Below are positions 3,794 to 57,450 of a DNA stretch of 58,970 nt, piece by piece. The DNA is from a virus (Duplodnaviria; Caudoviricetes), in the IMG/VR virus record IMGVR_UViG_3300037882_000913, positions 1-58,970 of that record, one strand, 5' to 3'. The translations under genes were made by a program, and so were the position numbers. Numbering within the stretch: the first letter of the stretch is position 1; the number at the start of each line of letters is the position of its first letter. The notes under the pieces are model-generated. The model did no database searches, had not been told where the DNA came from, and saw nothing but the letters and a program-made list of their open reading frames with translations.

Positions 3794-3875
3794 TGTATGG
3801 GTCATATTTACACAGTTTGAAAGATTTGTCAAATTAAATGTTGTAGCGGCGCGGGTTTTGGGGTAATAATAAGTG

Positions 3876-10964: not shown

Positions 10965-11863
10965 TGCTATCTTTAATTGATAATATAGAACGCCCAGACC
11001 GTAAAGATTTCATCAAGCACTTGCGCGAAAATGGTTTGTCCTTAAAAGAGTATTGCCTTAAATACTACGCTCGGAAGGACTTACTGACTGGAGATGATAT
11101 TGAGTATAAAGATGATATTCACTATATCAACTCTACTTTTAACTCTAGGGAGAATATGGTCAAACACTTTCTGGCGGGCGATTGTCGGGAAGATATAGAA
11201 AAAACTATTAGGGGTCGTGCCGCTATTAAGTCTTTCATGTTCGCCCCCTCGACGGTAGAAACTAGGACGAGTATTTTGCCGAGCCCCGCTCTTCTTTTTA
11301 AGCTAGGAATAGATTATAATTCTTTCAACGAATCTTTAGGGCTCAAACCTAGATACAATTATCACCCAACAATAGAAAAGGTGGCCGACCCTCTACATAT
11401 TCTAGTTGATACTAGGGAACAGAATCCATTGCAGTTATCGTGCAAAACCTCAGTGGCGAAACTTGACGTGGGAGATTATTCGTGCCAGAACCACTTCAAC
11501 AACTGTTTCATAGAAAGAAAGAGTTTGGAAGATTTCTGCGGCACTATGTCTCAAGGATTTGATAGGTTTAAGCTAGAAGTAGAGCGGGCGGATTCTTTGG
11601 GATTTCACCTTGCTGTTCTCGTGGAGGAAAAGCTAGAAACATTAATGCAGATAAATGTGGCAAATAACCATAAATTTATTAAGGGGCCGCCAGAGTTTTA
11701 TCTAGCTAGGATGCGAACGCTATGCGAACAGTATGGTAATGTCCAATTCTTATTCGTAGGTGGTCGCTATGAATCCTCTAAGATATTACAGGAGCTTTTT
11801 AGGATAAAAGGCGGGTTTTCTAGGTTAGACCTCCAATTTTTATATGATAACCATCGCATTTGA
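10964..11863 (+). CDS. ERCC4/XPF-type nuclease domain protein
   Basis: ILVDTREQ, GDYS, IERKSLEDF. Confidence 0.88.
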   Translation: MLSLIDNIERPDRKDFIKHLRENGLSLKEYCLKYYARKDLLTGDDIEYKDDIHYINSTFNSRENMVKHFLAGDCREDIEKTIRGRAAIKSFMFAPSTVETRTSILPSPALLFKLGIDYNSFNESLGLKPRYNYHPTIEKVADPLHILVDTREQNPLQLSCKTSVAKLDVGDYSCQNHFNNCFIERKSLEDFCGTMSQGFDRFKLEVERADSLGFHLAVLVEEKLETLMQINVANNHKFIKGPPEFYLARMRTLCEQYGNVQFLFVGGRYESSKILQELFRIKGGFSRLDLQFLYDNHRI

Positions 11864-14788: not shown

Positions 14789-15176
14789 GCACCGCTTAGG
14801 AAGCCGCAAACTTTGGATGACTCTTGTCGCAATGGCTATCAATGCCGGGGCATATTATCTAGAAGTCCAACACCTTTACTCTTTTATCACTCCAGAACAG
14901 ATTGCAGCCTTTTCGTCTCTAAGCAAGGATTTTCACTATGTTACTGCGGTTATCCTAACTGGATATTTAGGTTTGCAGAGCGTTCTTGACTGGAAGAACA
15001 CCACGTCCTCAACAGTGTCTCAAGTTACATCGTTTGTTTCTGAGAAAATTGATAAGAAGGAAAAGATAGATATTGATGAGACAATCAAGGCTCTAGACGT
15101 TCACGTTGAAGTATTAGAAGAGGGCATGAACGCGCCATCACTTAAACCATTTGGAAACTATGCAAACGAAGACTAA
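14781..15176 (+). CDS. Holin candidate
   Basis: SRKLW followed by two hydrophobic segments and a charged tail; directly upstream of the endolysin. Confidence 0.65.
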   Translation: MIKHRLGSRKLWMTLVAMAINAGAYYLEVQHLYSFITPEQIAAFSSLSKDFHYVTAVILTGYLGLQSVLDWKNTTSSTVSQVTSFVSEKIDKKEKIDIDETIKALDVHVEVLEEGMNAPSLKPFGNYANED

Positions 15177-15831
15177 AGAAGTTGTCCGTAAAATCATTAA
15201 CTGCTTTGAAAACGGCAAAGCGGAATCAGATTACTCATCTGTTTACATCTATAAAGACGGGCCAAACCAAGTAAGGCAGATTACTCTAGGGTTTGGCATC
15301 ACTCAATATGGGAATATGCGCCGCCTATTGGAGATTTATAAAAATGATGGAGGTAAATTCTCTGATAAGCTATCTCCGTATATTACAAAGATGGGCGATT
15401 CTTCTACGGTAAATGATAAGCAATTTATTGCTGACTTGCAAAAGGCGACTCGCGAAGACCCTATTATGAAGGCAGCGGAAGATAAGGTTTACGAGGACGT
15501 TTATCTTAAAGGTGCGATTAAATTTTGCGAAGATAATGGGTTTGTGACTCCTATGGGATTAGCGGTTGTGCTTGATGGGGTAGTCCACAGCGGAAAAATT
15601 CTAGACAGTCTTAGAGCTAAGTTCAATGAAACAACGCCAAGACAAGGAGGCGATGAAAAAGTTTGGTTACGAGATTATTGTAAGGCCCGCAGGAGTTGGC
15701 TAGCAAATCATAGCAGAACAATTCTTCACGGAACCGTGTATCGCATGGACTTCTTCTTAAAACAAATGGCGGCTAATAATTGGGATTTGGTGGGAGAAAT
15801 GCGTCCAAATGGAGTTAAGATTTCCAATTAA
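15160..15831 (+). CDS. Endolysin, chitosanase (GH46)/lysozyme-like fold
   Basis: INCFENG...Y...DG..RQITLGFG; VVLDGVVHSG; TVYRMD. Confidence 0.8.
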   Translation: MQTKTKEVVRKIINCFENGKAESDYSSVYIYKDGPNQVRQITLGFGITQYGNMRRLLEIYKNDGGKFSDKLSPYITKMGDSSTVNDKQFIADLQKATREDPIMKAAEDKVYEDVYLKGAIKFCEDNGFVTPMGLAVVLDGVVHSGKILDSLRAKFNETTPRQGGDEKVWLRDYCKARRSWLANHSRTILHGTVYRMDFFLKQMAANNWDLVGEMRPNGVKISN

Positions 15832-28736: not shown

Positions 28737-29489
28737 ATGAAACTACTATTCACGTTCTCCGTCGATAAGGAGCAAGAGGTTGAGAAGAAAACAGAAACAG
28801 TAAATGAGGCGGGTAATACCGTGACCGTTACTGAAAAGGTCAAAGAGCAGGCTCCAGTGGAGTTCTGTTTGCGTAAACCTAGTCGCGTTATGTCTGATGA
28901 CGCGGACCTATATTATCACTGCCAAGTCAGCAAGGGCTTAAGCGCGGGGCTATTATCAATGGCTTTGATTAGCAAGCGTTTAGCTAATGACGGAGGAATC
29001 TTTACAGAAGAGGAAAAGAGAGAGTTCGACCGCAAACACGCAGAGCTTTTCACGAAGAAACTGGCGTTTCAAAAGCTCGTATCCACCCCAGACAGCGAGA
29101 AACTAGAAGGTCACAGCGCGAAAACAGAAGCTTTGCAAGTTGAGATTCGCGAGCTTGTCAGAGAAATTCAGAAGTTTGAGCTAGAGAACCAAAGCATGTT
29201 TACTAGTTCGGCAGAAGTCCGCGCTCGTAATAAGGTTGTAGTTTGGTGGTTGGCGGCCCTCTTGTATAAGAAACAGGGGGAAGGTTGGGAGCCGTTTTTC
29301 GAGGGTTCTGACGTTGAAGCGCGTATTGAAGCTTGGAATAAGATGGATGATGAGGATTACGACGAAGAAGAAATGACTTTTCATAATAAGGTCTTCAAAC
29401 AGGCTTTAAGCGCCGTTTCGATTTGGTATCACGGGGCAGCTTCTAATCAGGAGGAGTTTAAGAAAGTCTTCGCTGAACTTGAAGTTTAA
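28737..29489 (+). CDS. Tail assembly chaperone candidate
   Basis: Acidic helical protein upstream of the tape measure. Confidence 0.55.
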   Translation: MKLLFTFSVDKEQEVEKKTETVNEAGNTVTVTEKVKEQAPVEFCLRKPSRVMSDDADLYYHCQVSKGLSAGLLSMALISKRLANDGGIFTEEEKREFDRKHAELFTKKLAFQKLVSTPDSEKLEGHSAKTEALQVEIRELVREIQKFELENQSMFTSSAEVRARNKVVVWWLAALLYKKQGEGWEPFFEGSDVEARIEAWNKMDDEDYDEEEMTFHNKVFKQALSAVSIWYHGAASNQEEFKKVFAELEV

Positions 29490-30447
29490 TAGCGAGAAGA
29501 TATTTTCGGAAGTAATTGCGGGGCGGACTCCAGTTGATTTGGTGGGCCGCCCTGTTTTTTTTCGTCACCTAACTCCTCAGAATCGTGGGGATAGCTCTTA
29601 TTATTATGAAAAGGTAATAGCGCAGTGTGAGGGAATGGGCATCGCTACTAGGGAGAAGAGGCTAGAAGAAGTTAAGGTGGTGGGCACTTGGACAGAGGAA
29701 CATGAAGGAGCTTACTTAAACGCTCAAAGCTACCTAGACAACTTAAACAACACGGTCAAGACGCTTGCTTTGCCATCTCAAGTTGCCGAGATGAAGGGTC
29801 AAATTGAGCAAGCTAAAGAAAAGTTCAGAGAAGTTTCTAGTAACCGGGCCGCCGCTATTGGAATTACGGCAGAACAGTTCGCAGACAAGAAAGCTAACGA
29901 GAAATTTATATTTGATAACTTGTTTGCGGATTCGTGTTGCTCCGCTTCCTTGTTTTCGCCCGATGAATATGACGAACTAGAAGAATCTGATATTGGTAAA
30001 GTAGTAACTGAAATAAATGTTATTGTGGCCGCCTACTCAGATTCATATCTTAAAAAGGCCGCCTTATCTAGATTAGTTCAAGATTTAATACAGATTTCAG
30101 ATGGAGACGCGATGCGATTCTATGGAGTGCCCGCTATTAAACTTACCTATTATCAGATTGAGTTGTTGAATTACGGTAAATGGTTCCAAAGCATACTAGC
30201 AGACCCCAAAAAGAAGCCACCCGCTCATATGATGGACAATCCAGACGCTTTAATTGAGTGGAGCACTGGGCAGAAAAATGCAGCGAGTATCCTGAATGCG
30301 CCGGGGCAAAATGTGGCGATTGTAGGGGCGACTCCAGAAGACCTAAAGGCTATTGCGGGAGAAGACGCTGTAAGTATGGATTCCCTTATTAAAAAGAGCG
30401 GCAAGCAGCGCGGCGCTAATTTGGCAAAAATGTTGGGACACAACTAA
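29479..30447 (+). CDS. Second tail assembly chaperone candidate
   Basis: Directly upstream of the tape measure; TTG start. Confidence 0.55.
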   Translation: MKFNSEKIFSEVIAGRTPVDLVGRPVFFRHLTPQNRGDSSYYYEKVIAQCEGMGIATREKRLEEVKVVGTWTEEHEGAYLNAQSYLDNLNNTVKTLALPSQVAEMKGQIEQAKEKFREVSSNRAAAIGITAEQFADKKANEKFIFDNLFADSCCSASLFSPDEYDELEESDIGKVVTEINVIVAAYSDSYLKKAALSRLVQDLIQISDGDAMRFYGVPAIKLTYYQIELLNYGKWFQSILADPKKKPPAHMMDNPDALIEWSTGQKNAASILNAPGQNVAIVGATPEDLKAIAGEDAVSMDSLIKKSGKQRGANLAKMLGHN

Positions 30448-30488: not shown

Positions 30489-33400
30489 ATGCCAGACCAA
30501 TCTATAGAACTGATTGCAGACTTAAAACTGCAAAAACCAACGACCGCCGAAAGGCAGATTCGCGAGATTGAACGTAATTTGTTCAAGGGCTCTGGGCGGG
30601 CGGGAGAGCCGCTGGGTCGTCTTACTGGTAAAGTTTCTGAGTTTGACAAATCGTTAGAGGCTGCTAATGCCCGCGTTATCGCGTTCGGAGCATCCGCTGC
30701 GATTATCACAACTGTAACTACCGCTCTGACCCAGATGGTAGTTCAAAGCATTCGCGTTGAGAAAGTCTTGTTGGACATTAACGTATTGTTAGGTCAAAGC
30801 TCCTCCAGTCTTTCTAAATTTAGCGATTCGCTTTTTGAAGTAGCTAAGAATACTGGGCAAAGCTTCTTTGATGTAGCAGAGGCGGCTAAGGAGTTCTCTC
30901 GTCAAGGTTTAGGAGTTCAGGAAACTCTATCGCGCACTGCGGACGCGATGATTCTAACTCGTTTGACTGGACTTGACCTAGTTAAGAGCGTAGAACAATT
31001 AACAGCGAGCGTAAACCAATTCTCTAAAGAGGGAATTACGACGGCAGATGTTATCAACAGGCTTGCTAACGTTGATGCGAAGTTCGCCGTATCTGCTAAA
31101 GATTTGTCGGAAGGTTTGAGTCGTGCGGGTTCCGTAGCGCAAGACGCGGGAGCGTCATTCAACGAACTTATCGCGCTAGTAACCGCCGTTCAGCAAAGAA
31201 CCGCTCGCGGTGGTGCTGTCATTGGTAACGCGCTCAAAACCATTTTCACTCGTGTCTCCCGCTCTGACACTCTTGATTCTCTTGAAAAACTAGGAATTGG
31301 AGTCCGCGACCTAGAGGGAAATACTCTACCCGCAATCCGAATCCTAAGCGAGCTTTCCCAGAAATATGATGAAATGTCTTCTTCGCAGAGGGCGTTTACT
31401 TCTGAGCTAGTTGGCGGCGGCTATCAGATTAACATTGTAAAGAGCTTATTCGATGATTTAGGCCGCACTGTTCCAGAGTATGCTAAGGCGTTGGATGTGG
31501 CGGGTCGCTCTACGGACGAAGCTTACCAACGTAACGAATTGCTCAATAAGAGCTTTGCGTCGCTTGCGAATGAAGCTGGACAGAACTTAACTAAGCTAGC
31601 GGCCTCTTTTGGTAGCTTGACTTTCGGCCCAGCGCTCAAGAATATCTTTAGCGTCATTAACGGGGCGGGCGACTCTATTGATGGAAACGCTTTCTTGGAA
31701 GCGGGCGCGAAGGTTGGAAAGGGCTTAATAACGGGCATTGGCGACTTCATCGGCGGCCCCGGCCTAATCTACTTAATTTCCCTTATCGGCAAGTTAGGTA
31801 AAAAGTTTGGAACTTTCGCCAAAGATTCTCTTACGGATGTTCTATCTATTGGGGCTCCTAACGCGAAGATTCTTGATACGCAAAAGGGCATTGTAGATTT
31901 AGTTAATAACGAAGCTCGCGCCCATGACATTGTTAATAATGCACTATTAACTCAGGTTCAAAAAGAGCAACAGTTAATCCTTCTCATTAAAGAGAAAGTG
32001 GCCGCTCAAGCCGCTTATAAAAATGAAACACTCGCGTTATCAACCTCGTTGGTTGGTCGGGGAGTTGCATTCAAACCATCTACAGGTCAATTTAAGACAA
32101 AAGCGGGCGGCCATATGCCCCTTCCTATCTCGTCGGTCCCACAAGAAGCCATCCAAAGGGAAATTGTGGGGGCGAAGCAGGCGGGCTACAATATCCGCGC
32201 TTCTGACGTGCGCGTGATGCGGGCCAGCATCGACGGAAAAAGCACAACAGTTGTTTATAATAACAAAGAGAAGGTTATCCATGATTATATGGGGAGCGGG
32301 GAGCCTGCGATTATTCCGCCTACTGGTAGAATCAATAATTATTTTGACGGAACGACAACGAGGGCTTTTAAAAACTCATTAGGGGGCATTGGACTAAAAA
32401 TAAAAAATACGGGCTCCTATCTTGATTATTCTGCTGATAGAGCTAGCAAACAGTATCTTATCGAAGGAGTTGAGTCTCAGCAAAAAGGAGATGCCAGAAC
32501 CCTGTTTGAGACGTTAGCTAAAAAAGCTCAGAAAAAGGGCTTTTCTATAGAGTCCGGTTCTTTTATCCCACAGTTAGATAGAATAGACCCATTAACTTTC
32601 GATACTAACTCAAAAGTTGATAATCTTTATAAGCTTTTCCCACAGCTTCGTTACAGAAAAGGACTTGGCAATACTAGCGGCGACGTATTTTTGCCTACTG
32701 GCTCTACGAGCATTAAAACTCCATTTGGTTCTCTCGATGAATTAGAGTCTCTTGTCCAAAAACAATCTAATACCAAGCAAATAAGATTTGGAGGCGTCTC
32801 GACTCGGTTCGCCGCTGGAAGGATTGGTAACTATGCTGGTGGCATCGCAAGACCGGGACCATCCCTAACCGGAACTTTTGGCTCACTATCAGCCGACGCG
32901 GGTGCTAGACAAGCTTTCAGCGAGTCTGTATATATCCTAAGTAAAAAACTTGGCATCCCAGCTAATAAAATAGCATCAACAATAATTAGCGACAAGAATT
33001 TCAGGGGATTTGACGCGGCGTATTTTCAAAATGAAAATTTGATTAAAGTTGGCGCTCCGTCAATTAAAAACAGAGACACTATTAATAGACTTAAAGTGCC
33101 ATCAGTTGGGGCTTTAGGCAGGGGCGAGAGTTTGGGGCAAACGGCTGGGGGTATTATTGCCCACGAATATTTCCACAACGCGTATAGAACGAAACAGGAG
33201 GCCGCCCTTGGGTTTGCGAAAGAGAATGGCCTATTCATTCCTCGTGACGCGAGGCACGCCCTAGATTATCTTCAAGACGTAAAAGGCTACTCGAAACATT
33301 CATCAAGGGAATATAAAAGCTATGCGATAGAAGAGGCTCTTGCTACGCAGTTTGGCAAAGTAATTGGGTTTACTCAACACGCGGGCGGCCACATGCCCGA

Positions 33401-36400
33401 CTATAAAAATTTCGCAGCCTCCCCAAAAATCCCAAAACAACTTGATTACATAAAAAATAATCAAAAGTTGGGCGGCGTTGAATTTAAGAAGAAGGGCGGC
33501 GCACTTATCTTGGATATGGTTACTAGTGGCCGCGATGCCGAAGGCAATCGCTTAAAGGGCACTGGTATTCTTGATTTTGCCTTTAAACAACTATTTTCCA
33601 TTGCCCAGAAATCGGGAATCAAAGAGGTTGGTATGACTCCTATTAATGGGCGCGTCATCAATAAGGCGCAGCGCCTATTTGGGACTCGCGACTCAAGGGG
33701 CAAGCCAATTGATTTCGGAAATGATATTCGGTTGAATGTGGCGAAGTATGCGGGTAAGGTGATGAATGCTGCGGGCGGCTCTTTCAATCCAGCACGAGTT
33801 ATAAAACAAGGAGGCTTCGTAAAAGGAGCGAACAAACCAACGTTAAGCGGAATGGGAGAAATCCTATCTAGTATTGGTATTAAAGGAGACTTTAAAAGCG
33901 CGTCTGGTATAGAAGCTGCACTTAGGGATAAAAGCTCTAAGAAGAAACTCTTTGATTATTTAAAGAGTCGCCCGATAAGTGTAAGCTCGTTCCCTGATAA
34001 ATATTTTGAGATAGGGGATGGAAACCACAGAAAAGCTTTAGCTGATTTGGCGGGTATTAAAAATATACCTTCGTATCTTAATGCGGCGGGAGGACTGTCG
34101 GCCCAAAGAAATCTAATTAGACTTCCAAAAGGTTTTGAAGCGAAAAAGAGCGGCCCTAAAACTCTAAAAGAGAAACTTGCAGACGCTTACGCGAGCGCTA
34201 ATGTGGCGGCTCAAAAATTCGCTATTAAAGCTAATCCTTATGCGGCTTACGCTGACGACGCCATTGGATTTGTTCGTGGAATGTTTGGGTTTTCTGGGGG
34301 ATATATGAATGCCGCCCTTGGCTTCTCATCCGCCGAACTCCAAGGAATGTCCAAAAAAGACCTGTTGACGACCGCTCAACAACTTGGTATCCCAATTACG
34401 CCTGAGATAAAAAAATCTAATGCGGCGAGTTTGGCGAAATTAATTAGCGGCTCTAAGCAGCATAAGCAACTAGTTAGCCAAGAAAGAAGAGTAAAGGCCC
34501 GCGAGGGTGCGGCTCTGTCTAGTAACCTAGCGACAACTAGAGGGTTTCAAGCCCAATTAAAATTGACCGACACGGACGCTGTAGGACGACCTATCAATAT
34601 TAATCGTGTTACGCCGCCGCCGACAGAAGCTCAGAAGCTCGCAGAACTAGAGCGAGTCGTAAATCCCGGCGCTTTCTCCCCTTATTCAAAGGCTCAATTG
34701 GCACTTGGTCAAGCAGAATCAGCGAACCCAAGTTTGCCACAACGAACTCCAGAAGAACTAATACAAAGAAAAATTCAGGGAGCTAAAATCCGTGCGGAAA
34801 GAGCGGAGTCCGTAAGACAGAGGGCGATAGCGAACGCGAGAGCTAGGCTCGCGTCAAGAGACATTATTTCTGGCGCGGCGGCGGCTGGAATGACTGCAAA
34901 TCGCGCCCCCTCTCGTTTGAGTGGGCTAGGACTTCCAATCCAAAGCGGACCAAATCCCGTCCTAACCCCACGGGCTATAGAACTTGCCAAAGAAAGGCAA
35001 ATGGTTTCCAATCGCGTGCGGAATGAGCGGGGCTCACGCTTGACTTCTTCTCAATTAGAGCAGCTTCGAGCCGAATCTGGTTCAGGGCTCAAAACTAGAC
35101 AAGCGCAAGAAGCCGCTCGCCAGAAAGCTTATGCAGGTAGTGTAGAGGGGGTTGCCGCAAGACTAACAACCGCAGGAATAGCAAATCCTATTTCTAGCAC
35201 CTATCAGCAAGCTCCGCTTATTCCATTTTTAGGGCGTCCCGGTGCTCCGGGGGCGGCTCCCGGCACTGCCGCTGCCCAAGGGGGTCGCGGTGGAAGTTCT
35301 GGTGGTGGACCTCCGATAATTCCTCCAGTAGTGCCGCCATCGGGAGATTCCCCTCAAAAACGTTCGCTTTTATCGCGAGCTACTTCATTTGAAAAACCAG
35401 AACGCAACGCTAGGTTTTCCAGCGGAGCGTTTGCGCTTTCGTTCGCGGCCCCTTTAATTGGTGGAGTCGCAGCGGAAACTTTCGGTTCAAAAGACCCATC
35501 CGACCAACGCTCTAATCGCAAAATTCAAGGTATTGCATCGGGTATTGGAACTGGAGCGGCGCTAGGAGCTATTGTGGGCGGGCCTTTGGGCGCTGGTATC
35601 GGCCTTGCCGTCGCTGGATTTACTTCCCTCAAAGCGATTCTTGACAATACCGTTTTATCTTTTGACGACTTAAACGAAAAATCAAAAATACAATCAGAAG
35701 CGTCTCAAAGAATTATTTCCGGCATCGCTGGCTATGCTAACGCGCTAGAGACTCTTCAAAATGAATCACTGGACCCAAATCAGCGCAGAAGCGTCGAACG
35801 CCAAGGCCAGAAATCTTTGTCGTTACTTTCACAAGCGGATAAAGAAGAGTTGATAGCGGCGGGAACAGATTTCAAAAAAATTCAAGAGATTAACTCTAGG
35901 CAGTCTGAGCGGGCGAGTCGGGCCGACGCTGGGCTAGAATTGCCGAAATTAGTTAATTCGCTTAGGTCTAAAAAGGGAGACGGATTAGGAAACAGCATTC
36001 TTCTCAGCACTATTTTGGAGGCCGGGAAGCCTAATGAGGAGATTGACGAGAAAGAGTTGGATAGAAATCTAGCGGAACTCAAAAAACTGCCGAATCAAAG
36101 AGACGCCGTTAAAGGGATAAGTTCTCAGAGCGACGCTTACCGCAGACTTCAAGAACTAAAATCTCAAAAAACTGAAAAAAGAGAAGCTGTTCTAACGACT
36201 CTGGGACTAAAACCGTCTGATATAGCGGAATTTACCAGTCAAATTAATCAGGCGTCAGAAGCGCAGCGAGACGAATTTGATAAGTTGCTTCTGTCTGTAA
36301 AAAAGGGGTTAAATACCAGAGACGCTTTCAAAGCTTTCTCCGCTAATCTAGTAGAGGCTCAAAAAGACACCAGTAAAAGTCTATCTTCAATTCGTCGCAG

Positions 36401-38087
36401 TATTAATACAGAATCTTTAGCTGGACAACGTGCATCCGAGCTAGATTCAATTAAAAAGGACGGGTCGCGGAGCCGCGCTTCGTCGGTGTCTGACTTGACT
36501 TTTTCCACGTTGCGCTCGCGCTTGTCCGACGCCGAACCTTATCTTTCCGCGCCTACGTCTATTCGACTACAGAGCGAAGCGGACATTGCCCAAAAAACAG
36601 AAGGAACAAATAGGGAAATCACGAAACTCAACGAAGATAGAGCAAAAGCTATTCAAGGAAGCCTATCAGAAACGAAAAGAATCCTTACTGAAATTCCTGA
36701 TGGGGTTATCAATAAAATAAATGACCGCAAGGGCGCGTTGGGACTTGTCGAAAAAGTGGGCGGCGCTAAAACTTCTACGGCGGCATTAGAGTCTATTAGC
36801 AAGTTCGGTGCCTTGATAAAAGATTCAGAAGACCCTGAAACAAAAGCTTTCTATGAGAAATTGCTCGAACTATCAAAGCAGCAAAAAAGCGCGCTAGAGG
36901 GAATTGAGGAAAAATCAATAGAAACAGTTAATCAACTGCGATTGCAACTTGCTTTGGATAAAGCTGGCATAAAATCTGAAACCAACAGACAACTTAACAG
37001 AAAAGCTTTTCAAACTTCTTTGACCCAATTTAACCCTATAGACGTTCTCAAAAACGGACAACAATTTGGGGATATTGCGGCAGCCGCTAAAAAAAGAGTT
37101 TTCGATGGACTGGTTGACCCATCTGAATCCACTAACCAAAGATTTGCGCTCAGATACGGAACAGCGGAAGAAAAACGAAAAATACAAGATGAAGTCAGAG
37201 CAAAAGCTTTAGAGTCATCGGGAGTCAGGGCTCGTGGAATTATACAGGAGTTCTCAAGTGGTTCATTATCAAGCCCAGAGGAAATAGCAGACCAAAGAGA
37301 AAGCCTTTCTAAGAGTTTATATTTAATAGATAGTCCGGTCGGACCAGACGACAAGACCCGCATAAATAACTCTCGCAAGTCTGGAGGCGTTTATCTTGAG
37401 CCTACCTACGGAATTCCCGGCCTTGCCGCGATTCCTAATTTTTCTAAAGAGTTTTTAGCGCAAGGGGCTACCCTTTCGGACGTAGAAAAAACCAGAGAGT
37501 CTAAGAGAAAGCAATTAAAGAATGACTTAATTATCCAAGGGTTCTCAGCGGTGACATCTCAGGCCGACGCAGAAACTTCGCCATTTCTGGATGCTTTGTC
37601 TGGCGGCAAGTATGGATACGGAAGCGGCCTGTCAAAGTCAATATCATCGCAGATAAATTCAGGCAAGTTCCGAGATGCGGAGCAACAACTTACAGCCCTA
37701 TACCCAAGACTCAACAATGCTGGCAAACAAGAATTAGGTGGACAGGGTGGCATTATATCTAAGCTGCGAATCGCCCAACAGAACCTCGAAGCTACCGCAA
37801 GAAAAGCGGATACAGAATCTAAAAAGGCCGCTGGAGGCGATGACAAACCAATAACGATTAAGTTTGATAAGAGTGCGGAGGATACTATAAATAAGCTCGT
37901 TCCAAAAGAAAGCAAAACCCCTCCGTCTATATCTATCCCCACAACTGTATCAGTCACAACTACAGGAGGCGTATCAGAAAAAGATGGGCAGCAAGCCGGG
38001 GAAGCAATCAAAAATCAACTGGCGTCCGTAACTGAGTTCCTTTCCCAAAAGTTTGGATACGCAGAAGTTCCTAAAGCTACCGCATAA
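30489..38087 (+). CDS. Tape measure protein with embedded cargo domains
   Basis: TP901-like TMP core (EFSRQG, RGGAVIGNALKTIFTR); TM segments near 35420-35640; internal HEYFH and DGNHR motifs. Confidence 0.92.
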   Translation: MPDQSIELIADLKLQKPTTAERQIREIERNLFKGSGRAGEPLGRLTGKVSEFDKSLEAANARVIAFGASAAIITTVTTALTQMVVQSIRVEKVLLDINVLLGQSSSSLSKFSDSLFEVAKNTGQSFFDVAEAAKEFSRQGLGVQETLSRTADAMILTRLTGLDLVKSVEQLTASVNQFSKEGITTADVINRLANVDAKFAVSAKDLSEGLSRAGSVAQDAGASFNELIALVTAVQQRTARGGAVIGNALKTIFTRVSRSDTLDSLEKLGIGVRDLEGNTLPAIRILSELSQKYDEMSSSQRAFTSELVGGGYQINIVKSLFDDLGRTVPEYAKALDVAGRSTDEAYQRNELLNKSFASLANEAGQNLTKLAASFGSLTFGPALKNIFSVINGAGDSIDGNAFLEAGAKVGKGLITGIGDFIGGPGLIYLISLIGKLGKKFGTFAKDSLTDVLSIGAPNAKILDTQKGIVDLVNNEARAHDIVNNALLTQVQKEQQLILLIKEKVAAQAAYKNETLALSTSLVGRGVAFKPSTGQFKTKAGGHMPLPISSVPQEAIQREIVGAKQAGYNIRASDVRVMRASIDGKSTTVVYNNKEKVIHDYMGSGEPAIIPPTGRINNYFDGTTTRAFKNSLGGIGLKIKNTGSYLDYSADRASKQYLIEGVESQQKGDARTLFETLAKKAQKKGFSIESGSFIPQLDRIDPLTFDTNSKVDNLYKLFPQLRYRKGLGNTSGDVFLPTGSTSIKTPFGSLDELESLVQKQSNTKQIRFGGVSTRFAAGRIGNYAGGIARPGPSLTGTFGSLSADAGARQAFSESVYILSKKLGIPANKIASTIISDKNFRGFDAAYFQNENLIKVGAPSIKNRDTINRLKVPSVGALGRGESLGQTAGGIIAHEYFHNAYRTKQEAALGFAKENGLFIPRDARHALDYLQDVKGYSKHSSREYKSYAIEEALATQFGKVIGFTQHAGGHMPDYKNFAASPKIPKQLDYIKNNQKLGGVEFKKKGGALILDMVTSGRDAEGNRLKGTGILDFAFKQLFSIAQKSGIKEVGMTPINGRVINKAQRLFGTRDSRGKPIDFGNDIRLNVAKYAGKVMNAAGGSFNPARVIKQGGFVKGANKPTLSGMGEILSSIGIKGDFKSASGIEAALRDKSSKKKLFDYLKSRPISVSSFPDKYFEIGDGNHRKALADLAGIKNIPSYLNAAGGLSAQRNLIRLPKGFEAKKSGPKTLKEKLADAYASANVAAQKFAIKANPYAAYADDAIGFVRGMFGFSGGYMNAALGFSSAELQGMSKKDLLTTAQQLGIPITPEIKKSNAASLAKLISGSKQHKQLVSQERRVKAREGAALSSNLATTRGFQAQLKLTDTDAVGRPININRVTPPPTEAQKLAELERVVNPGAFSPYSKAQLALGQAESANPSLPQRTPEELIQRKIQGAKIRAERAESVRQRAIANARARLASRDIISGAAAAGMTANRAPSRLSGLGLPIQSGPNPVLTPRAIELAKERQMVSNRVRNERGSRLTSSQLEQLRAESGSGLKTRQAQEAARQKAYAGSVEGVAARLTTAGIANPISSTYQQAPLIPFLGRPGAPGAAPGTAAAQGGRGGSSGGGPPIIPPVVPPSGDSPQKRSLLSRATSFEKPERNARFSSGAFALSFAAPLIGGVAAETFGSKDPSDQRSNRKIQGIASGIGTGAALGAIVGGPLGAGIGLAVAGFTSLKAILDNTVLSFDDLNEKSKIQSEASQRIISGIAGYANALETLQNESLDPNQRRSVERQGQKSLSLLSQADKEELIAAGTDFKKIQEINSRQSERASRADAGLELPKLVNSLRSKKGDGLGNSILLSTILEAGKPNEEIDEKELDRNLAELKKLPNQRDAVKGISSQSDAYRRLQELKSQKTEKREAVLTTLGLKPSDIAEFTSQINQASEAQRDEFDKLLLSVKKGLNTRDAFKAFSANLVEAQKDTSKSLSSIRRSINTESLAGQRASELDSIKKDGSRSRASSVSDLTFSTLRSRLSDAEPYLSAPTSIRLQSEADIAQKTEGTNREITKLNEDRAKAIQGSLSETKRILTEIPDGVINKINDRKGALGLVEKVGGAKTSTAALESISKFGALIKDSEDPETKAFYEKLLELSKQQKSALEGIEEKSIETVNQLRLQLALDKAGIKSETNRQLNRKAFQTSLTQFNPIDVLKNGQQFGDIAAAAKKRVFDGLVDPSESTNQRFALRYGTAEEKRKIQDEVRAKALESSGVRARGIIQEFSSGSLSSPEEIADQRESLSKSLYLIDSPVGPDDKTRINNSRKSGGVYLEPTYGIPGLAAIPNFSKEFLAQGATLSDVEKTRESKRKQLKNDLIIQGFSAVTSQADAETSPFLDALSGGKYGYGSGLSKSISSQINSGKFRDAEQQLTALYPRLNNAGKQELGGQGGIISKLRIAQQNLEATARKADTESKKAAGGDDKPITIKFDKSAEDTINKLVPKESKTPPSISIPTTVSVTTTGGVSEKDGQQAGEAIKNQLASVTEFLSQKFGYAEVPKATA

Positions 38088-49200: not shown

Positions 49201-49739
49201 TTGTTGGGGACTGTGGAGGGGTTGCTGTCTCTGGTCAGGTCGGAATCCCCGGCGCGACATGCGGTTCGGCCACAGTAGCGGGGTGCGGGCCTACTGCTGG
49301 GTATATTTTTGTAGGAACCATCCCTAAAGCCAAGGGAACTTATTTTACATCATCTTTTTCTGGAAATTGTTTGTCTTCGTCGGTTTTGGCGTATCCATCT
49401 GACTGTGGGATGTATAACGTATGTATTGGAACTGACACCGAAGCTGAATGTCCAACGAGTATTGAATGGTCGGGATGTTCTGTAATTAATGACGCAGTTT
49501 CTTGTTCTGGTGCTGCGGGCGACGGCTCAATGATTCACGTAGGAAGGACTATTTGCTCAAATCTCGCGGCGGGAGAAGGTGCGGCTGAGCAGCGATGCTC
49601 TTTGGATATTTTCCTTGAAGTGTCTTCGACTCCGACATGCGACTTGCACTCTCACGGATGTCACTCTTGGGCGTTTACGGGGCAAACCGTGTTTCCTAAA
49701 GGCGACCCGCTATTAATACTTTGCGATGCTTTATTCTAA
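46209..49739 (+). CDS. SG-rich tail protein with a Calx-beta-like domain and Cys-rich C-terminus
   Basis: VSFTQSIY..CES...FTIPIYDN...VRIVDND; DPC repeats. Confidence 0.7.
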   Translation: MIISGIATRSILYQTGAVFFDFSFNAPSTSGQHKFGVSGSEFFGFTATNGKIFDPAGKFVYNYAPNENVNISGVVSPSSYNYSVNSNLLCWGQPTSSSLYGSAIKNLYASSSSEFQLSSFIRGEAADYSLDGAGAYIGVNSLVSGRLINNATGRPFRIFDVVLNGQSSYSLYSFTTGNISSTGYIVFSGDGFGMQDEIVQVSMQTNFGQVDYDFTISGDYGVVPDVYLNLSPDSNVVISNRPMYINAVAANYPSGSRIGVSLEYVSGTTGNIYFFSGQAGFGAQSMSGYLTGCGFLSYQCAGLVSGLDPKTLIWETGIGTGQFSTDFHCATGNISGNYSLPLYGLGAGAITLDYLASGESSGYFHGRIPIVGAWLNAISTNFSGAGSSPVSASGLIPVGTGKVFVYPTGEVRIEDPISSGDYYEANLSVSKVYSGPIVYDYSTVAVGFATGRTFSGIVTKSFAPEFEQGSYSFTKYFSGAVSSSAIISTGNFQITGCPSSALVSGLITGVFSASYPLLCSNTSNFPTIPIHGFPSSVYNRDGTLADPNTAFTFYPSGGFSTYDDSLENYLLGGGVKTRISRMGDTPSGWGDFSNPVADCAEFPREYPSSNDVTSHIWKERISGTESVSSFDSLDNGIGIVNTNLFMTGTGDFYADPSGAVDSGVMEFFISGSGLKAIALKGLNNGQTDRILNLTLYKNGVLSDSWESLYIESSLYDKYGEASYNTNAYDTLTISELGSGKYSLVVTAKTAPEPVVSFTQSIYTGCESSRAVSVTVQAVGYFRKPCCVNITNYSESTAHSGVHYDPIYLDYTDPVLISGGCQSVGAHAPRGMRCPGVCFPPTSPDYNGRWKEETQYVNFTIPIYDNSVYGEYASFYMYLDVASASGCSVVDATTEVRIVDNDNEQFEIGGTGIMPDISSLDCSLVPDVEPPEPPCIKDPSLCDPCILQPRLCNPCYDRPELCDPCFLDPTQCTGDEPPCRCIETIEIPCEGCSGSLMTIVGDCGGVAVSGQVGIPGATCGSATVAGCGPTAGYIFVGTIPKAKGTYFTSSFSGNCLSSSVLAYPSDCGMYNVCIGTDTEAECPTSIEWSGCSVINDAVSCSGAAGDGSMIHVGRTICSNLAAGEGAAEQRCSLDIFLEVSSTPTCDLHSHGCHSWAFTGQTVFPKGDPLLILCDALF

Positions 49740-50511
49740 TGGTTACAGCATTCTTTCTGAGAAAGAAATTCTTCCAGAAGAAAAATTTGAGCAAACTCTA
49801 AGCGTATGCTCAAACGTCTATCTCGCGCCTTGGAGAAGTCTGTTAAAATGTGGCAAACTTCACCTTATCAAAATCCCCCCAAACTGCTCCGCGACCATTC
49901 TAAAATGGGAGTGGGAAATTGACAGTATAAGTTCTTTGATACAGAAATCCTCTATTTCTCAAATTTTCTGTACTAGCACCGGAAGGAGATGTCCGCTCAG
50001 AACATTCCTATACCCCGATTATGTGGCTCCAGATATAGTGGATGAGTCGCCGAAATCTGGGGTTGTTTTCATGGGGTGGAGAAATAATGAGCTGCGCTCT
50101 CGTATATTCCAAGATTATTCGTCCGTGTTCAGTGTAACTTTAAGAGACTCTTACGCTTCCAATGAATCTAATGCAAATCATAGACTTGAATATACTAACT
50201 CGTTGGCTCGGGCTAGCGTGTGTCTGTGCCCCAAGGGGGCGGGTTCTGGAACTCGCAGATTTTGGGAAAGTATGGCGGCAGGAGCCGTTCCGCTGTTGGT
50301 TTCTGACCAGATGCTCCTTCCGAAAATATGGGACTGGGACTCCACAATCATTCGTGTCAGTGAGGCGCGAGCCATGTATTCCAAAGATTCTCTATTTAAC
50401 GCCACCATCACATCAAGTTTGGAAAAAAAACGGGATATGTGTCGAAAGTCCCACCAGTTTTTCTCCAACCCAACAAACGTTTCTAGTTATATAAACAATG
50501 TCATTAGTTAG
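49726..50511 (+). CDS. Exostosin-like (GT47) glycosyltransferase
   Basis: FMGW...LR, Y..SLARASVCLCPKGAGSGTRRFWESMAAGAVPLLVSD...LP...DWD. Confidence 0.85.
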   Translation: MLYSNGYSILSEKEILPEEKFEQTLSVCSNVYLAPWRSLLKCGKLHLIKIPPNCSATILKWEWEIDSISSLIQKSSISQIFCTSTGRRCPLRTFLYPDYVAPDIVDESPKSGVVFMGWRNNELRSRIFQDYSSVFSVTLRDSYASNESNANHRLEYTNSLARASVCLCPKGAGSGTRRFWESMAAGAVPLLVSDQMLLPKIWDWDSTIIRVSEARAMYSKDSLFNATITSSLEKKRDMCRKSHQFFSNPTNVSSYINNVIS

Positions 50512-54609: not shown

Positions 54610-55355
54610 TGTTCGCGAATCACCCTGTTGTCAAAATCGCTGCGCCAAGCGCGGATTATCCCATTGGACTCTCTTTGGAAAAGTTCCTTTACTTTTTTTC
54701 TCGCGTTGAGTCTTTCGACGTGTCTTTATCGTCATTTGTAGAGCCTTTGTCCACCACGTCCCCGTCAAATATTATTGAAATTATTAATACTATAAGTTCT
54801 AATACCGGGGCTTCCTATTTATCCGGGTCAGGCTTTACAACGAGAGTATCTTTTGACGGCTCTGCCAATGTCATCTCAGAATATCCCAGATTTTCTTTTT
54901 CATTTGGTGGATGCTCTATTGTTATTGACTTCGGGCTATCTATTACTTATTTTGGTTTATTTTATCCTTGGGTGAAAATTGAATTTTCAAACGGTGTGTC
55001 AAGCGTTCCTGCTGGACGCACAGTGGGGGCTGTTTCTATTATGGGCGGGTCCGTCCCTCTATATTCCTCCGACGCAATAAGTCAAATCTCCGCTTTCGGA
55101 GAGGTGAAAGACGGAGCATCTTTTGATTTAATAAAACTAAAAAGTTCCAGCAAGGCTTCTGCGATTTTTTCTGGAGGGTCTGGTTTTAGTCGTTACATAA
55201 AAGCTTCTCTAGGAGGATTAAAATGCGAACCGTCTTTTCGTGGAGATTCGCTTGTAGTAAGTCTTCATCCAGATAGCAAAAGCGGCTATATACGCTTTGA
55301 ATCAGATTCTCCTCATAGCAGTTTTATGTCGCTAGACAGGATTATTCTTTCTTAG
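54609..55355 (+). CDS. Hypothetical Ser-rich protein; last gene of the rightward block
   Basis: 248-aa ORF with TAATG coupling. Confidence 0.65.
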   Translation: MFANHPVVKIAAPSADYPIGLSLEKFLYFFSRVESFDVSLSSFVEPLSTTSPSNIIEIINTISSNTGASYLSGSGFTTRVSFDGSANVISEYPRFSFSFGGCSIVIDFGLSITYFGLFYPWVKIEFSNGVSSVPAGRTVGAVSIMGGSVPLYSSDAISQISAFGEVKDGASFDLIKLKSSSKASAIFSGGSGFSRYIKASLGGLKCEPSFRGDSLVVSLHPDSKSGYIRFESDSPHSSFMSLDRIILS

Positions 55356-56127
55356 CCGCTTTTTTCTTTTCGATTCCCTCTTTGATATGGGCGATAATCT
55401 TAAAGATGTTCTCGCTGTTTACGTCTGCGAGAGTTTTCCACTCGGACGCTCCAACTGCAAATAGTTCACCCTTCGTTTCCAATACGGCCATCCGGTTCTG
55501 AAACTTATCAAAGCTAACGTCGTTCTTTTCTAGGGTGGAAGAAAGCATGTCGCGAATACCCGAATCGGCGTCTGGAGTCGATGTCGCAGACTCCGAGGTA
55601 ACTCCCGTGTCCCGTCCAATTTCATCTTGCCCGCAAATATTAATGCCAAGTGAATTTCTTACCGCACGAACAAATCCTCGATTCTCAGCAGTCGCAGAGA
55701 GATAGACTCTAGCAAATGAGCTTGTATTGTGATGGGTGGCGTCGGCTAGAGCCTCAAATGTAACTGACCTCCCATCGGTTTCATAATTAGGAATCCACCC
55801 GATTGTAGTTTTGACTCCAACGGCATTCTCGCTATGGAATGTGACTTCGTGATAGACCGAATCATACCCGCGCAGTGCTGCGATGTATTTAATACCACCC
55901 AATAGAATTAGCAGGTCTTTATCTTCCAATCCTTCAATTGAGGTTGGTAAGGCGCGATTCTTGAAGTTCTGTTTGTTTACTACAAGAAACTCTTTGGGGA
56001 CCATAGCCCGCCAATCGACACGTCCATCTGGAGTTAGTTTGTGCTCGATGCTCTCGATGAGTCCGCTAGCGCTTCGCTTCCACGATTGTTGGGGTTTTGC
56101 TTCTTGTGTTTCAGTTTGTTCAGGCAT
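55342..56127 (-). CDS. Rad52/Sak-like single-strand annealing protein candidate
   Basis: ADAT...ATAENRGFVRAVRNSLGINICGQDEI; ATG at 56127 preferred. Confidence 0.55.
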   Translation of the reverse strand: MPEQTETQEAKPQQSWKRSASGLIESIEHKLTPDGRVDWRAMVPKEFLVVNKQNFKNRALPTSIEGLEDKDLLILLGGIKYIAALRGYDSVYHEVTFHSENAVGVKTTIGWIPNYETDGRSVTFEALADATHHNTSSFARVYLSATAENRGFVRAVRNSLGINICGQDEIGRDTGVTSESATSTPDADSGIRDMLSSTLEKNDVSFDKFQNRMAVLETKGELFAVGASEWKTLADVNSENIFKIIAHIKEGIEKKKAAKKE

Positions 56128-57265
56128 AAATGTAATATAGTTCTTTATCGCGCCAAAATTCGGGCGAATCAATTACGATACTCTCCGTTTTATCAAATCC
56201 GTCAACTGGTTTATCTTCCAAAACGTGCGCGTGCGAGAGATAGATTTTGCTATTGGAGAGTATTTTTCTGTTGGTCCTAAACTTTGTGCCAATAGGACAC
56301 TCCACTCGCTCTGGTGTCGGGTATGGAGCAATCACAGCAATATCAAAGTAATCAAGCTTAATGGGATTCAGCCGCTCGTTTGGCAAGTTTGAGAATAGTC
56401 GGAAAGGAACTTGCTCCCGCATCATGTCCTGTGCAAATTTCGGACTATGATTTTCGTCAATTTCGTATGCAATAAAATCAATATTGGAGCGGAGAGACTT
56501 TAGGATATTTACATCCAGCGGCGCTTTTGTTGATACTGAACATTTGCGAAGGGCCAACTGGTCGTAAACCGCCCGCTCTACGCCACCCTTATCAAATCGA
56601 ATATTCAAAACTTGACCGGGAATTGACTCTGGGCGTAAAATGACATTTGGGATGATTTCCAAAACGTGTAATGGATAGCCGACGCCCGCATGGAGTGTTT
56701 TGAATGCAACTTGACGCATCTTCAATAGTTCAAACGCCGCTTGAACTACTTCCTCTGGTTTAATCTTATTAATGGCGGCTGGGCTCTCATTTGGATTATA
56801 GCTAGGAGTATAATCTTTTGGGGTAAGATATTTTTGCAAGTAAGGATTCCCGAAGTATGCTTTGGAAACTTCTGGGGGACTGATACTGTATAGTGCGACA
56901 AAAGGCACGTTAAAGTGGCCCGCTACGTGAACGGCGCTCGTATCCCCACAAACAACGAGCGCGGCATTTTTAATTACGTCAAAGTATTGTAGCGTAGTTG
57001 TTTTGCCGCAAATGTCGTGGTTTGCTCCGATTCGTTCGTCCTTCTCGCCGCCCGCTTGAACGAGAACGTATCCCGCTGCATTTAAGGCGGGTTTCAACCA
57101 GTCACAAACAATTCGCCAGAACTGATAGTTCTTAGCGGGCGCTCCGGTGCTAGTAATAATTACAACGTATTTTTGAGTGAATGGCATTGGAAACGAGTGA
57201 GTTTCAATTTCCATTGGGGCGATTCGGAGGCGCGTTGCGGCGCTATAGGCTTCTACAAGGTGCAT
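56120..57265 (-). CDS. GT9 (heptosyltransferase-like) C-terminal domain protein
   Basis: AKNYQFW, DICGKTT, VCGDTSAVHVAGHFNVPFVALY. Confidence 0.8.
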   Translation of the reverse strand: MHLVEAYSAATRLRIAPMEIETHSFPMPFTQKYVVIITSTGAPAKNYQFWRIVCDWLKPALNAAGYVLVQAGGEKDERIGANHDICGKTTTLQYFDVIKNAALVVCGDTSAVHVAGHFNVPFVALYSISPPEVSKAYFGNPYLQKYLTPKDYTPSYNPNESPAAINKIKPEEVVQAAFELLKMRQVAFKTLHAGVGYPLHVLEIIPNVILRPESIPGQVLNIRFDKGGVERAVYDQLALRKCSVSTKAPLDVNILKSLRSNIDFIAYEIDENHSPKFAQDMMREQVPFRLFSNLPNERLNPIKLDYFDIAVIAPYPTPERVECPIGTKFRTNRKILSNSKIYLSHAHVLEDKPVDGFDKTESIVIDSPEFWRDKELYYIYA

Positions 57266-57450
57266 TCTTTATTATTTTTAACGTCGTCTAGCTCTCTCTG
57301 CAATCTAAAGGCTTCCTCGCACCATTTTCTAATGTGTTCGCGGTTGTATCCGATAGCTCCCACGATTTCAGCGTAGGAAGCATACTGAGCCAACTCCATT
57401 CCTGCGTTGGCTATCTTTTCTAGTAGTTCAATCTCTTGTTCGGTTCGCAT
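57253..57450 (-). CDS. Hypothetical protein
   Basis: 65 aa; coupled to both neighbours. Confidence 0.6.
   Translation of the reverse strand: MRTEQEIELLEKIANAGMELAQYASYAEIVGAIGYNREHIRKWCEEAFRLQRELDDVKNNKECTL

Follow-up and report, generated by a model that had tools for sequence, protein, structure and literature searches.

The gene at 30489..38087 (+ strand) of the window, by which we mean the whole 58,970-nucleotide stretch of viral DNA analysed here (record IMGVR_UViG_3300037882_000913), probably encodes a true tail tape measure protein (TMP) that also carries an array of polyvalent effector domains. We place the probability of this reading at about 0.58. The record is a linear fragment of an uncultured virus, and its CheckV completeness is 38. 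The differing sets of domains found in related phages suggest that the tail may inject an exchangeable payload of enzymes immediately before the DNA. Along the chain, an N-terminal core and a small domain, S0, would be followed by folded basic modules, S1 to S6, like beads on a string. Flexible copies of one conserved peptide (linkers L1 to L7) would mark the borders of each bead, and a Gly-rich stretch and a long C-terminal part come after the beads. A first-pass annotation, made without database searches, had described a TMP with seven linkers and enzyme-like domain strings between them, and its coordinates all match the translation of the open reading frame (ORF).

The identification as a TMP is well founded. 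The PhageMin_Tail family PF10145 matches residues 118-302 of the 2532-residue ORF (P0001) with an E-value of 1.7e-27 and 97 bits, against a curated cut-off of 33.2, and 14 PHROG 'tail length tape measure' families match within residues 18-640. Among cultured phages, tblastn retrieved annotated TMPs of Bacillus, Lactococcus, Flavobacterium and Gordonia phages, over residues 117-467 only and with ~26% identity. The ORF is very long, lies in the late/structural block, and has the Gly-rich hydrophobic stretch and long C-terminal part that are features of the class. Taken together, these sequence features indicate that the product of 30489..38087 is a true tail TMP. By BLAST, its conserved N-terminal core (residues 1-537, 30489..32099) is 45-95% identical in 30 of 44 relatives. 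Residues 538-1340 are not a helical ruler; the AlphaFold models show globular modules and linkers.

BLAST and module comparisons were made with these 44 relatives, and wider presence counts with 124. Metagenome contigs were scanned with an alignment of the N-terminal core, which gave at least 598 matched stretches, at least 486 of them encoding a relative; 80 were kept, and three further loci were taken from viral contigs. Motif statistics refer to 66 related TMP ORFs of at least 1500 amino acids from these loci. The module alignments used for modelling were built from the 44 relatives and the loci. A MAFFT alignment of whole TMPs (A1) was dropped because it spread the query, the window's TMP, over 5894 columns, and alignment A3, which put S1 homologues on S0 and S2, was unused for folding. 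Alignment A4 was distorted by an unrelated module in L001, L005 and P0003, and A5 was used in its place; in A5 the S6 tails of six rows fall on the first half of S4, which is either a real likeness or noise.

Sequence libraries were blind to the cargo. Pfam searches of each segment and of the whole region, up to an E-value of 10, returned nothing usable, including no peptidase model for S2, and Pfam found no domain in any cargo region of the 44 relatives. A phmmer search against the PDB gave one chance match (E 1.4), and tblastn of residues 530-1340 against 50,697 cultured-phage records gave none. We therefore made module alignments and structure models. The AlphaFold model of residues 774-1345 was built from 30 alignment rows and has a mean predicted local distance difference test score (pLDDT) of 80.2; that of residues 609-790 (m14cc30ad2abd) was built from 15 rows and has a mean of 77.8. 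In the former, S2, S3, S4 and S6 are confident (mostly pLDDT ~85-97) and the linkers are low. The first-pass annotation had described the units between the linkers as compact and unlike TMP helices, and both models agree with it, showing globular segments joined by linkers of low pLDDT.

Two of the modules have a GNAT fold. S1 (32352..32807; 152 amino acids, 16.8 kDa, isoelectric point (pI) 9.7) has a core with pLDDT values mostly of 76-94 per 10-residue block, and both of its ends (L2 and L3) are below 50. GNATs are its top Foldseek matches (best 5c82, E 1.5e-3). In the all-against-representatives search VIA, 50 of the 50 matches listed are of acetyl- or acyltransferase type or unnamed, with Z scores of 6.9-8.2 over model residues 13-167. 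The pyrophosphate-binding loop of GNATs, Q/R-x-x-G-x-G/A, lies between the fourth strand and the next helix. In S1 the loop QQKGDA (Q-x-x-G-x-A, residues 664-669) stands between model strand 47-54 and helix 60-75, and the 15 sequences compared all keep S, G, A, Q and PQL. S3 (33420..33746; 109 amino acids, 11.9 kDa, pI 10.3) is a minimal version with a pLDDT of ~90. The PDB matches listed for it by Foldseek are all GNATs (best 9dsb_A, E 5.5e-3, probability 1.0), and the VIA matches listed over model residues 203-324 have Z scores of 7.2-8.9, 2g3a_A being the best at 8.9. Its loop RLKGTG (R-x-x-G-x-G, residues 1021-1026) directly precedes model helix 254-268, and seven relatives carry S3 at 58-88% identity. 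Pfam GNAT families gave no match up to an E-value of 10 for S1 or S3, nor in the TMPs of the 44 relatives; we therefore name S1 and S3 GNAT-fold modules and not members of a named family. The models thus support a GNAT fold with a correctly placed loop for both modules, and an enzymatic role is predicted. S1-like GNAT modules also occur as two to three tandem copies in L073:6062-7921, L071:12269-14806, L082:6382-7638 and L048:13091-14302, each copy flanked by canonical GF(I/V)PNF at a spacing of ~200 amino acids.

S2 (32844..33377; 178 amino acids, 19.3 kDa) carries the HExxH signature of a zincin. HEYFH (positions 33162-33176, residues 892-896) lies in model helix 105-128 at a pLDDT of ~90, and a downstream EE (residues 948-949, ~55 residues on), which is a candidate for the third metal ligand (Glu) of a gluzincin-type enzyme, lies in model helix 163-185. 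Both are retained in 15 of 15 sequences, the query and 14 relatives of ~20-40% identity. VIA matched model residues 17-195 to 1oz9_A (Z 8.4, 115 amino acids aligned), 7y7o_A (7.7) and 1xm5_A (7.6). These YbeY-type metal hydrolases, which we take to share the zincin-like fold, were the only S2 matches among the 50 listed for this multi-module model, the rest being GNATs. Motif and fold matches point to a zincin-like module that is predicted to be a metallopeptidase.

For S4 (33780..34073; 98 amino acids, 10.5 kDa; PISV..FP..EIGDGNHRKALADLAGIKNIP), several weak matches point the same way. Its DGNHR motif is at 34017-34031, and F, P, D, G, H and R do not vary across 15 sequences. The model, at a pLDDT of 90-97, places DGNHR at the turn between strand 399-404 and helix 406-415. 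A strand, DGxHR (with the GxxR Arg) at a helix start and then G..IP is the order of motifs in ParB/Srx domains, and S4 follows it. PDB profile matches over the DGNHR motif are SbnI (5uje, E 0.15), Noc (7ng0, E 0.17) and a serine kinase (5x0j, E ~1). Pfam ParB_N (PF02195) matches 4 of 15 S4 homologues (best E 0.0032) and does not match the query; over the whole record PF02195 has no match. In the protein atlas, the first match is sulfiredoxin/ParB_N (0.90) and the third a viral ParB/Srx cluster (0.88). BFVD returned 'ParB/Sulfiredoxin' (E 1.6e-2, probability 0.85) and 'ParB-like nuclease domain' (57 columns, 33% identity, probability 1.0). With five weak independent lines in agreement, a ParB/Srx-like assignment is supported. 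The first-pass annotation had also called S1 and S3 GNAT-like, S2 a zincin and S4 ParB/Srx-like, and these three calls all held up: the first on fold matches and loop, the second on HExxH, EE and a fold match, and the third on the invariant DGxHR and the weak but agreeing matches.

The last two modules are helical. S5 (34095..34289; 65 amino acids) consists of two predicted helices of low confidence (pLDDT 36-65), and its homologues are limited to P0003 and P0004/L001. S6 (34323..34508; 62 amino acids) is a small helical unit with a pLDDT of ~92, possibly HeH/SAP-like. A three-sequence profile gave below-threshold PDB matches to eL13 residues 71-121 (E 0.016-0.08) and Rho 3l0o_A 12-39 (E 0.095), and Pfam IF2_N gave E-values of 0.036-0.15. 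The helices of the Rho-N/HeH-like unit proposed at first pass are thus confident, but its likeness to that family stays below threshold. The first half of S4 (PTLSGMGEILSSIGIK..., 33780-34000) and S6 (SKKDLLTTAQQLGIP..., 34323-34450) share the pattern L..(I/L)...(L/I)GI...S...L, and MAFFT repeatedly put the S6 of relatives on S4. It is possible that S4 combines a ParB/Srx core with a fused HeH-like unit.

The boundary peptide recurs seven times in the query. L1, KAGGHMP (residues 538-544, 32100..32120), is the first copy, consists of the AGG-H-I/M-P half only and scores 3.8 bits in a weight matrix. It aligns with (A/S)xGF(I/V)PNF in 56 sequences, in which G12 and P15 are invariant. L2, GRINNYFDG (residues 613-621, 32325..32351), is both a degenerate copy, identified by alignment, and a homology breakpoint. 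It has a pLDDT below 50 in the S1 model (residues 1-13), and the largest pile-up of BLAST alignment ends is at residues 611-621. Between L1 and L2 lies S0 (32121..32324; 68 amino acids, 7.4 kDa), a small domain recognised by its conservation. It is present in 99 of 124 relatives with E, A, G, N, E and P invariant, has no Pfam match and gave no lead in the protein atlas, where the best score was 0.76. L1, S0 and L2 belong to the conserved TMP core and not to the variable cargo.

The remaining copies bound the cargo. L3, FAAGRIGNYAGG (residues 774-785, 32808..32843), is the query's best-scoring copy at 7.9 bits; it has a pLDDT below 50 in both models, and alignments end at residues 774-783. L4, HAGGHMPDYKNFAA (residues 964-977, 33378..33419), is directly 3' of the zincin's last helix. 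Relatives retain AGG(R/H)(M/I)P..(Y)(K/R)N(F/Y) after S2, and the pLDDT is 53-62. L5, YAGKVMNAAGG (residues 1087-1097, 33747..33779), is aligned with (A/S)xG(F/H/Y)VPNFA in four relatives (P0017, P0021, P0023 and P0028), with alignment ends at residues 1088-1102. L6, YLNAAGG (residues 1196-1202, 34074..34094), is aligned with GG(H/Y/F)(I/V)PNF(S/N) after S4 in four relatives, with a pLDDT below 50 and alignment ends at residues 1193-1202. L7, FSGGYMNAALG (residues 1268-1278, 34290..34322), also has a pLDDT below 50, and G(F/Y)SGGY(M/V/I/L)NAA.G is retained in six sequences.

The weight matrix was derived from 222 distinct canonical copies in relatives, with the query's near kin left out. It places L3, L1, L5 and L4 among the six best-scoring sites of the query's 2532 residues, where the expected numbers of such sites per shuffled protein are 0.035, 0.20, 0.38 and 0.61, respectively. 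L2, L6 and L7 were missed by the matrix and align position for position with the canonical GG(H/Y/F)(I/V)PNF of relatives. The strict pattern G-x-[IVLM]-P-N-[FY] has no copy in the query TMP, whose copies are degenerate; in its clade, the motif seems to have drifted to AGGHMP..NFAA and GGYMNAAxG.

Across the family, the consensus is (A/S)xG(F/H/Y)(I/V)PNF(A/S), and the strict pattern is present in 2-8 copies in 64 of the 66 related metagenomic TMP ORFs. It occurs 268 times in 161,878 TMP residues, compared with twice in 291,582 residues of other ORFs from the same loci. One of the two non-TMP ORFs, L039:4849-6201 with GFIPNFA, starts four bases after the stop of a 662-residue TMP ORF; it is probably part of a TMP broken by a stop, a frameshift or a sequencing error. 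In the window, the sole strict match outside a TMP is GWIPNYE in the ORF at 55345-56172 (-), probably a chance occurrence. Motif copies within a gene share codons only 1.14 times as often as expected from the codon usage of that gene (1693 shared where 1486 are expected, among 2972 positions compared), a modest excess that points to selection on the peptide and not on a nucleotide tract. The recurrence of the linker, which the first-pass annotation had noted from the sequence, goes beyond chance by the matrix, by the restriction of the pattern to TMPs, by the alignment ends and by the low pLDDT at the linkers.

Between linkers, relatives differ in what they carry. By BLAST, the modules are present in the following numbers of the 44 relatives: S0 in 28, S1 in 6, S2 in 10, S3 in 8, S4 in 17, S5 in 2 and S6 in 4. 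The position of S4 also varies: it is right after S0 in P0014, and near residues 1540, 2170 and 1420 in P0017, P0021 and P0023. The 232 inter-motif segments of the 66 TMPs fall into 42 clusters, and Pfam has no match in 45 of 46 representative segments, the sole match being a weak one to HATPase_c.

Homology breaks at the linkers. Inside residues 560-1340, 126 of 168 BLAST alignment ends lie within five residues of a linker, compared with 26.7 expected; counting unique positions, 33 of 68 do so (binomial p 3e-10). The clearest case is P0013, which has 94% identity with the query as far as L2 and is identical again from L4 onward; between the two it is without S1, and its S2 is only 41% identical to that of the query. 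These comparisons support the view that modules have been gained and lost between relatives with breakpoints at the linkers, and the claim of the first-pass annotation that linkers are conserved and cargo varies is confirmed by the alignment ends and by P0013. A recent survey of phage protein mosaicism describes a mosaic signal for TMPs and no confirmed case of genuine recent exchange (PMC10684548). The swap in P0013 provides a genuine recent exchange of TMP domains of the kind that this survey could not confirm.

Relatives also carry other cargo modules. The 565-residue inter-motif segment of L076:12797-14491 matches HATPase_c_3 (GHKL ATPase) with 23.7 bits against a cut-off of 25, and has a weak sub-cut-off match to the C-terminal domain of phage G1 gp67. 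L001, L005, P0003 and P0011 (e.g. L001:12397-12770) have an extra module beginning PKTIYRGVNSKYGDKNRGAG between the zincin and S4, which is absent from the query and has no Pfam match. The commonest module of 170-290 amino acids in TMPs with canonical motifs (L017:11768-12451 and 30 similar; alignment A9) has invariant G, F, E, D, F, K and K. Its pattern G..FE.A ... D ... (D/E)xK makes it a candidate, possibly, for a PD-(D/E)xK nuclease-like domain; a PDB profile search with it gave only hemopexin-type lectins, through a short G.vFE..idaA match.

The composition of the chain is unusual. The query TMP has 0 Cys and 0 Trp in 2532 residues. Across the TMP ORFs of the family, 16 of 161,878 residues are Cys (0.010%), compared with 0.74% in neighbouring ORFs of at least 150 amino acids, and 0.155% are Trp, also compared with 0.74%. 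This depletion extends to the globular modules, all of which are basic (pI 8.3-10.3) and small (6.7-19.3 kDa). Effectors carried in the ~4 nm Hcp tube are about 20 kDa or less. The composition would fit a chain that has to lie in a narrow tube of negative charge and then move along it and across the envelope. The near-absence of Cys could then serve as an easily read sequence signature of proteins that have to cross tail and envelope.

We hypothesise that the modules are delivered with their carrier. TMPs exit the tail through the tube at infection, as is established for siphophages, and the modules would therefore enter the envelope or the cytoplasm just ahead of the DNA. There they would act on host proteins and nucleic acids, by acetylation, by proteolysis and by nucleoside triphosphate-dependent DNA nicking or binding. 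The motif is most likely a connector for packing or docking, one that a conserved component reads and the variable cargo does not. By contacting the lumen of the tube, the assembly chaperone or S0, it would hold the beads in order and packed inside the ~4 nm tube. Viable recombinant junctions would lie at the linkers because only junctions in connectors leave the modules intact. A similar early action has been proposed for head-packaged polyvalent proteins, as set out in the main text of Iyer et al. 2017 (PMC5512222).

A number of points weigh against a tape measure loaded with effectors. The motif is degenerate in the very TMP under study, and this TMP is known from the sequence of an uncultured fragment (CheckV completeness 38) alone. 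Pfam, PHROG and PDB sequence searches give no significant match to any query module. The Z values of the fold matches are middling (7-9) and may reflect just a common arrangement, as the tool's own note says. The models were built from shallow alignments of 30 and 15 rows, the first of them partly misaligned for S6, and the fold matches of S4 come from a multi-module model for which GNATs filled the PDB lists. A tail tube may be too narrow for three chains with folded modules of 17-19 kDa. Finally, the evidence fits docking and cleavage alike.

Cleavage is the alternative that survives best. It takes the chain for a true polyprotein whose motif copies are cut after tail assembly or ejection, freeing the enzymes; we consider this possible but doubtful. 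The cutter could be the embedded zincin (in the query clade), another conserved protease, or Asn-dependent self-cleavage. As in viral polyprotein cleavage sites, a conserved and disordered peptide of 7-9 residues is found at every domain boundary. Asn is retained in 6 of the 7 query copies (in canonical copies it is fixed by the search pattern), and a motif copy comes directly after the zincin's last helix in all relatives that bear S2. Both kinds of cutting have precedents: tail maturation involves a cut in lambda gpH and in T5 pb2, and several viruses have entry proteins that cleave themselves in an Asn-dependent way (after the Asn of N-F, N-A or N-P). Zincin-like peptidases are also predicted to process polyvalent proteins (Iyer et al. 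2017, PMC5512222, main text).

Against a cut speaks, first, the rarity of the zincin, which is found in just 17 of 124 relatives and 2 of 80 locus TMP ORFs. The motif is sharpest where the zincin is missing, and HExxH occurs in no inter-motif segment of less than 500 amino acids in canonical TMPs. The embedded zincin was rejected on these counts as a universal reader of the motif, and the reader should therefore be a conserved component. Candidates are the tube, a chaperone, the family-wide S0 (which lies between the first two copies) or a conserved protease. Moreover, the motif occurs in no other virion ORF; since it is confined to TMPs, a maturation protease would not meet it in its other substrates. 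A cut at L1 or L2 would also sever the conserved TMP core. A further-reaching proposal strikes us as rather unlikely: that the tail tube of a large, uncultured phage group is a modular effector injector, with a TMP polyprotein cut at the motif to free a changing set of acetyltransferases, peptidases, ParB-type enzymes and other modules into the host. The chain would be cut at the invariant Asn by itself, or else by a protease that is either embedded or conserved. If it were true, the boundary peptide would be a portable 'cassette junction' for payload swaps.

Alternatively, the modules could serve entry or assembly, as a wall peptidase, as envelope-directed activities or as inert spacers that set tail length. 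TMPs with embedded peptidoglycan hydrolase motifs exist in mycobacteriophage TM4, in T5 (pb2) and in staphylococcal phages, S2 has a metal hydrolase fold to which no substrate is assigned, and TMP length varies across the family from ~1650 to 3800 amino acids. However, GNAT and ParB/Srx folds use acyl-CoA and nucleotides or DNA, which are cytoplasmic, and are not known as wall-degrading folds. Lysozyme, M23 and transglycosylase families were not found in the TMPs of the query and its 44 relatives, and the retention of catalytic-type motifs at 20-40% identity argues against inert spacers. On balance, a role in entry or assembly is improbable.

Least credible of all is a DNA-level recombination site whose peptide has no function: the homology junctions do sit at the linkers, but copies within a gene hardly share codons beyond expectation (1.14 times), the query's seven copies differ in codons and in length, and seven motif residues are nearly fixed across TMPs whose cores are 40-55% identical, which points to selection on the peptide. 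The 'recombination-friendly' linker of the first-pass annotation is accordingly apt as a description of where viable junctions lie, but not as a DNA-level site.

Returning to the effector-bearing TMP, a comparison with known systems shows both likenesses and differences. Like the polyvalent proteins described in the main text of Iyer et al. 2017 (PMC5512222), the query joins several unrelated enzyme domains in one late, virion-encoded polypeptide. It shares with them the trio of zincin-like metallopeptidase, ParB/Srx-type and GNAT domains, and the proposed delivery with the DNA for action early in infection. That text defines the class by two or more unrelated enzyme domains in a single phage protein encoded among virion genes, often with a zincin-like peptidase, and the GNAT-fold, zincin-like and ParB/Srx-like modules in one ORF of the structural block are such a combination. 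Phage polyvalent proteins are, in the same text, tied to head components (MuF, portal) or to the N4 virion RNA polymerase. The query array differs in being part of a TMP, in having a single conserved peptide at the borders of each module, and in consisting of modules that Pfam models do not recognise. The term 'tape measure' has 0 occurrences in the main text of PMC5512222, its supplementary architecture lists being outside this count. In the collection of papers searched, supplements excluded, neither a TMP with an array of this kind nor the motif is described.

The query also resembles enzyme-bearing TMPs, such as that of TM4 with its Rpf-like and peptidase motifs, T5 pb2 and those of staphylococcal phages, in that a catalytic domain reaches the host at ejection. 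Whereas those TMPs carry one or two wall hydrolases, the query has five to six modules of cytoplasmic type, a repeated motif and swapping between relatives. We regard the array as a variant of polyvalent proteins and of enzyme-bearing TMPs, in a large uncultured family. Contractile injection systems and the type VI secretion system likewise hold small effectors of a similar size range inside a tube like that of a phage tail, and the cargo of extracellular contractile injection systems associates with the tape measure. Their cargo is a separate protein, however, whereas here it is covalently part of the ruler, in a TMP family of non-contractile type. Viral polyproteins share with the query a short conserved peptide in flexible domain boundaries and, in the query clade, a protease-like module in the chain. 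Their sites are cleaved, whereas cleavage in the query is putative, and most members of its family are without the zincin module.

On the level of single modules, S3 is similar to minimal GNATs that act in conflicts. The anti-CRISPR AcrVA5 (6iuf_B), one of the best structural matches of S3, has a Z score of 8.5 and a root mean square deviation of 2.7 over 87 amino acids, and also matches S1. With a chain of ~95 residues it is, like S3 (109), a very small GNAT. The toxins TacT and AtaT (7ak7, 6g96, 6gtp) match S3 with Z scores of 7.6-8.3. Sequence identity between S3 and these proteins is only 8-16%. AcrVA5 acetylates Cas12a, and TacT and AtaT acetylate charged tRNA.

Delivery of such domains is usually argued from head packaging. 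The carrier here is already known to cross the tail into the cell, and since this carrier is the TMP, the route of delivery follows from the protein's own role. With at least 486 relatives, the family is large and nearly invisible to Pfam; it may conceal a considerable stock of phage enzymes that act early in infection, possibly with counter-defence functions among them. The boundary peptide offers a concrete handle for finding such arrays.

The rest of the TMP follows the cargo. A low-complexity stretch rich in Pro, Ala, Gly and Arg (residues 1341-1635, 34509..35393; pI 11.4) leads to the Gly-rich hydrophobic stretch (residues 1636-1715, 35394..35633; grand average of hydropathy +0.24). The latter is kept in relatives, with the consensus ASFAxPxxGG...IGTGA...GGPxG in 24 TMPs, and is matched by phrog_594 at residues 1671-1710. 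The C-terminal part (residues 1716-2532, 35634..38087), presumed to be the ruler and the tip end, is 22-37% identical to the C-terminal parts of relatives. All features of the TMP described here are on the + strand. A further motif-like site, GLAAIPNFSK (37420-37445, residues ~2310-2318), is far from the cargo and scores 1.3 bits in the matrix.

Every neighbouring ORF between 9039 and 55355 shares the strand of the TMP, which lies downstream of the terminase (9039-10961). The neighbouring tail genes have no family match, and neither do most ORFs of the late block. Directly upstream of the TMP, the ORFs at 28737-29489 and 29479-30447 overlap by 11 bases in different frames; they too have no family match, and their position is the usual place of frameshifted tail assembly chaperones. 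An ORF within the structural block (15151-15828) matches glycoside hydrolase family 46 (chitosanase-type, E 1.8e-14). Towards the 3' end of the record lie three glycosyltransferase-like ORFs, one matching GT47/exostosin (49726-50508, +; E 1.5e-14) and, on the opposite strand, one matching GT9 heptosyltransferase (56120-57262, -; E 9.8e-11) and one with a weak GT1 match and DUF4214 (57450-58961, -). At 7313-7966, 3051-3790, 3873-4646 and 10964-11860 are ORFs listed with sigma-70 region 2-like, endonuclease VII/HNH-like (two), PhoH-like and ERCC4-type products, and the ERCC4-type nuclease ORF comes directly after the terminase.

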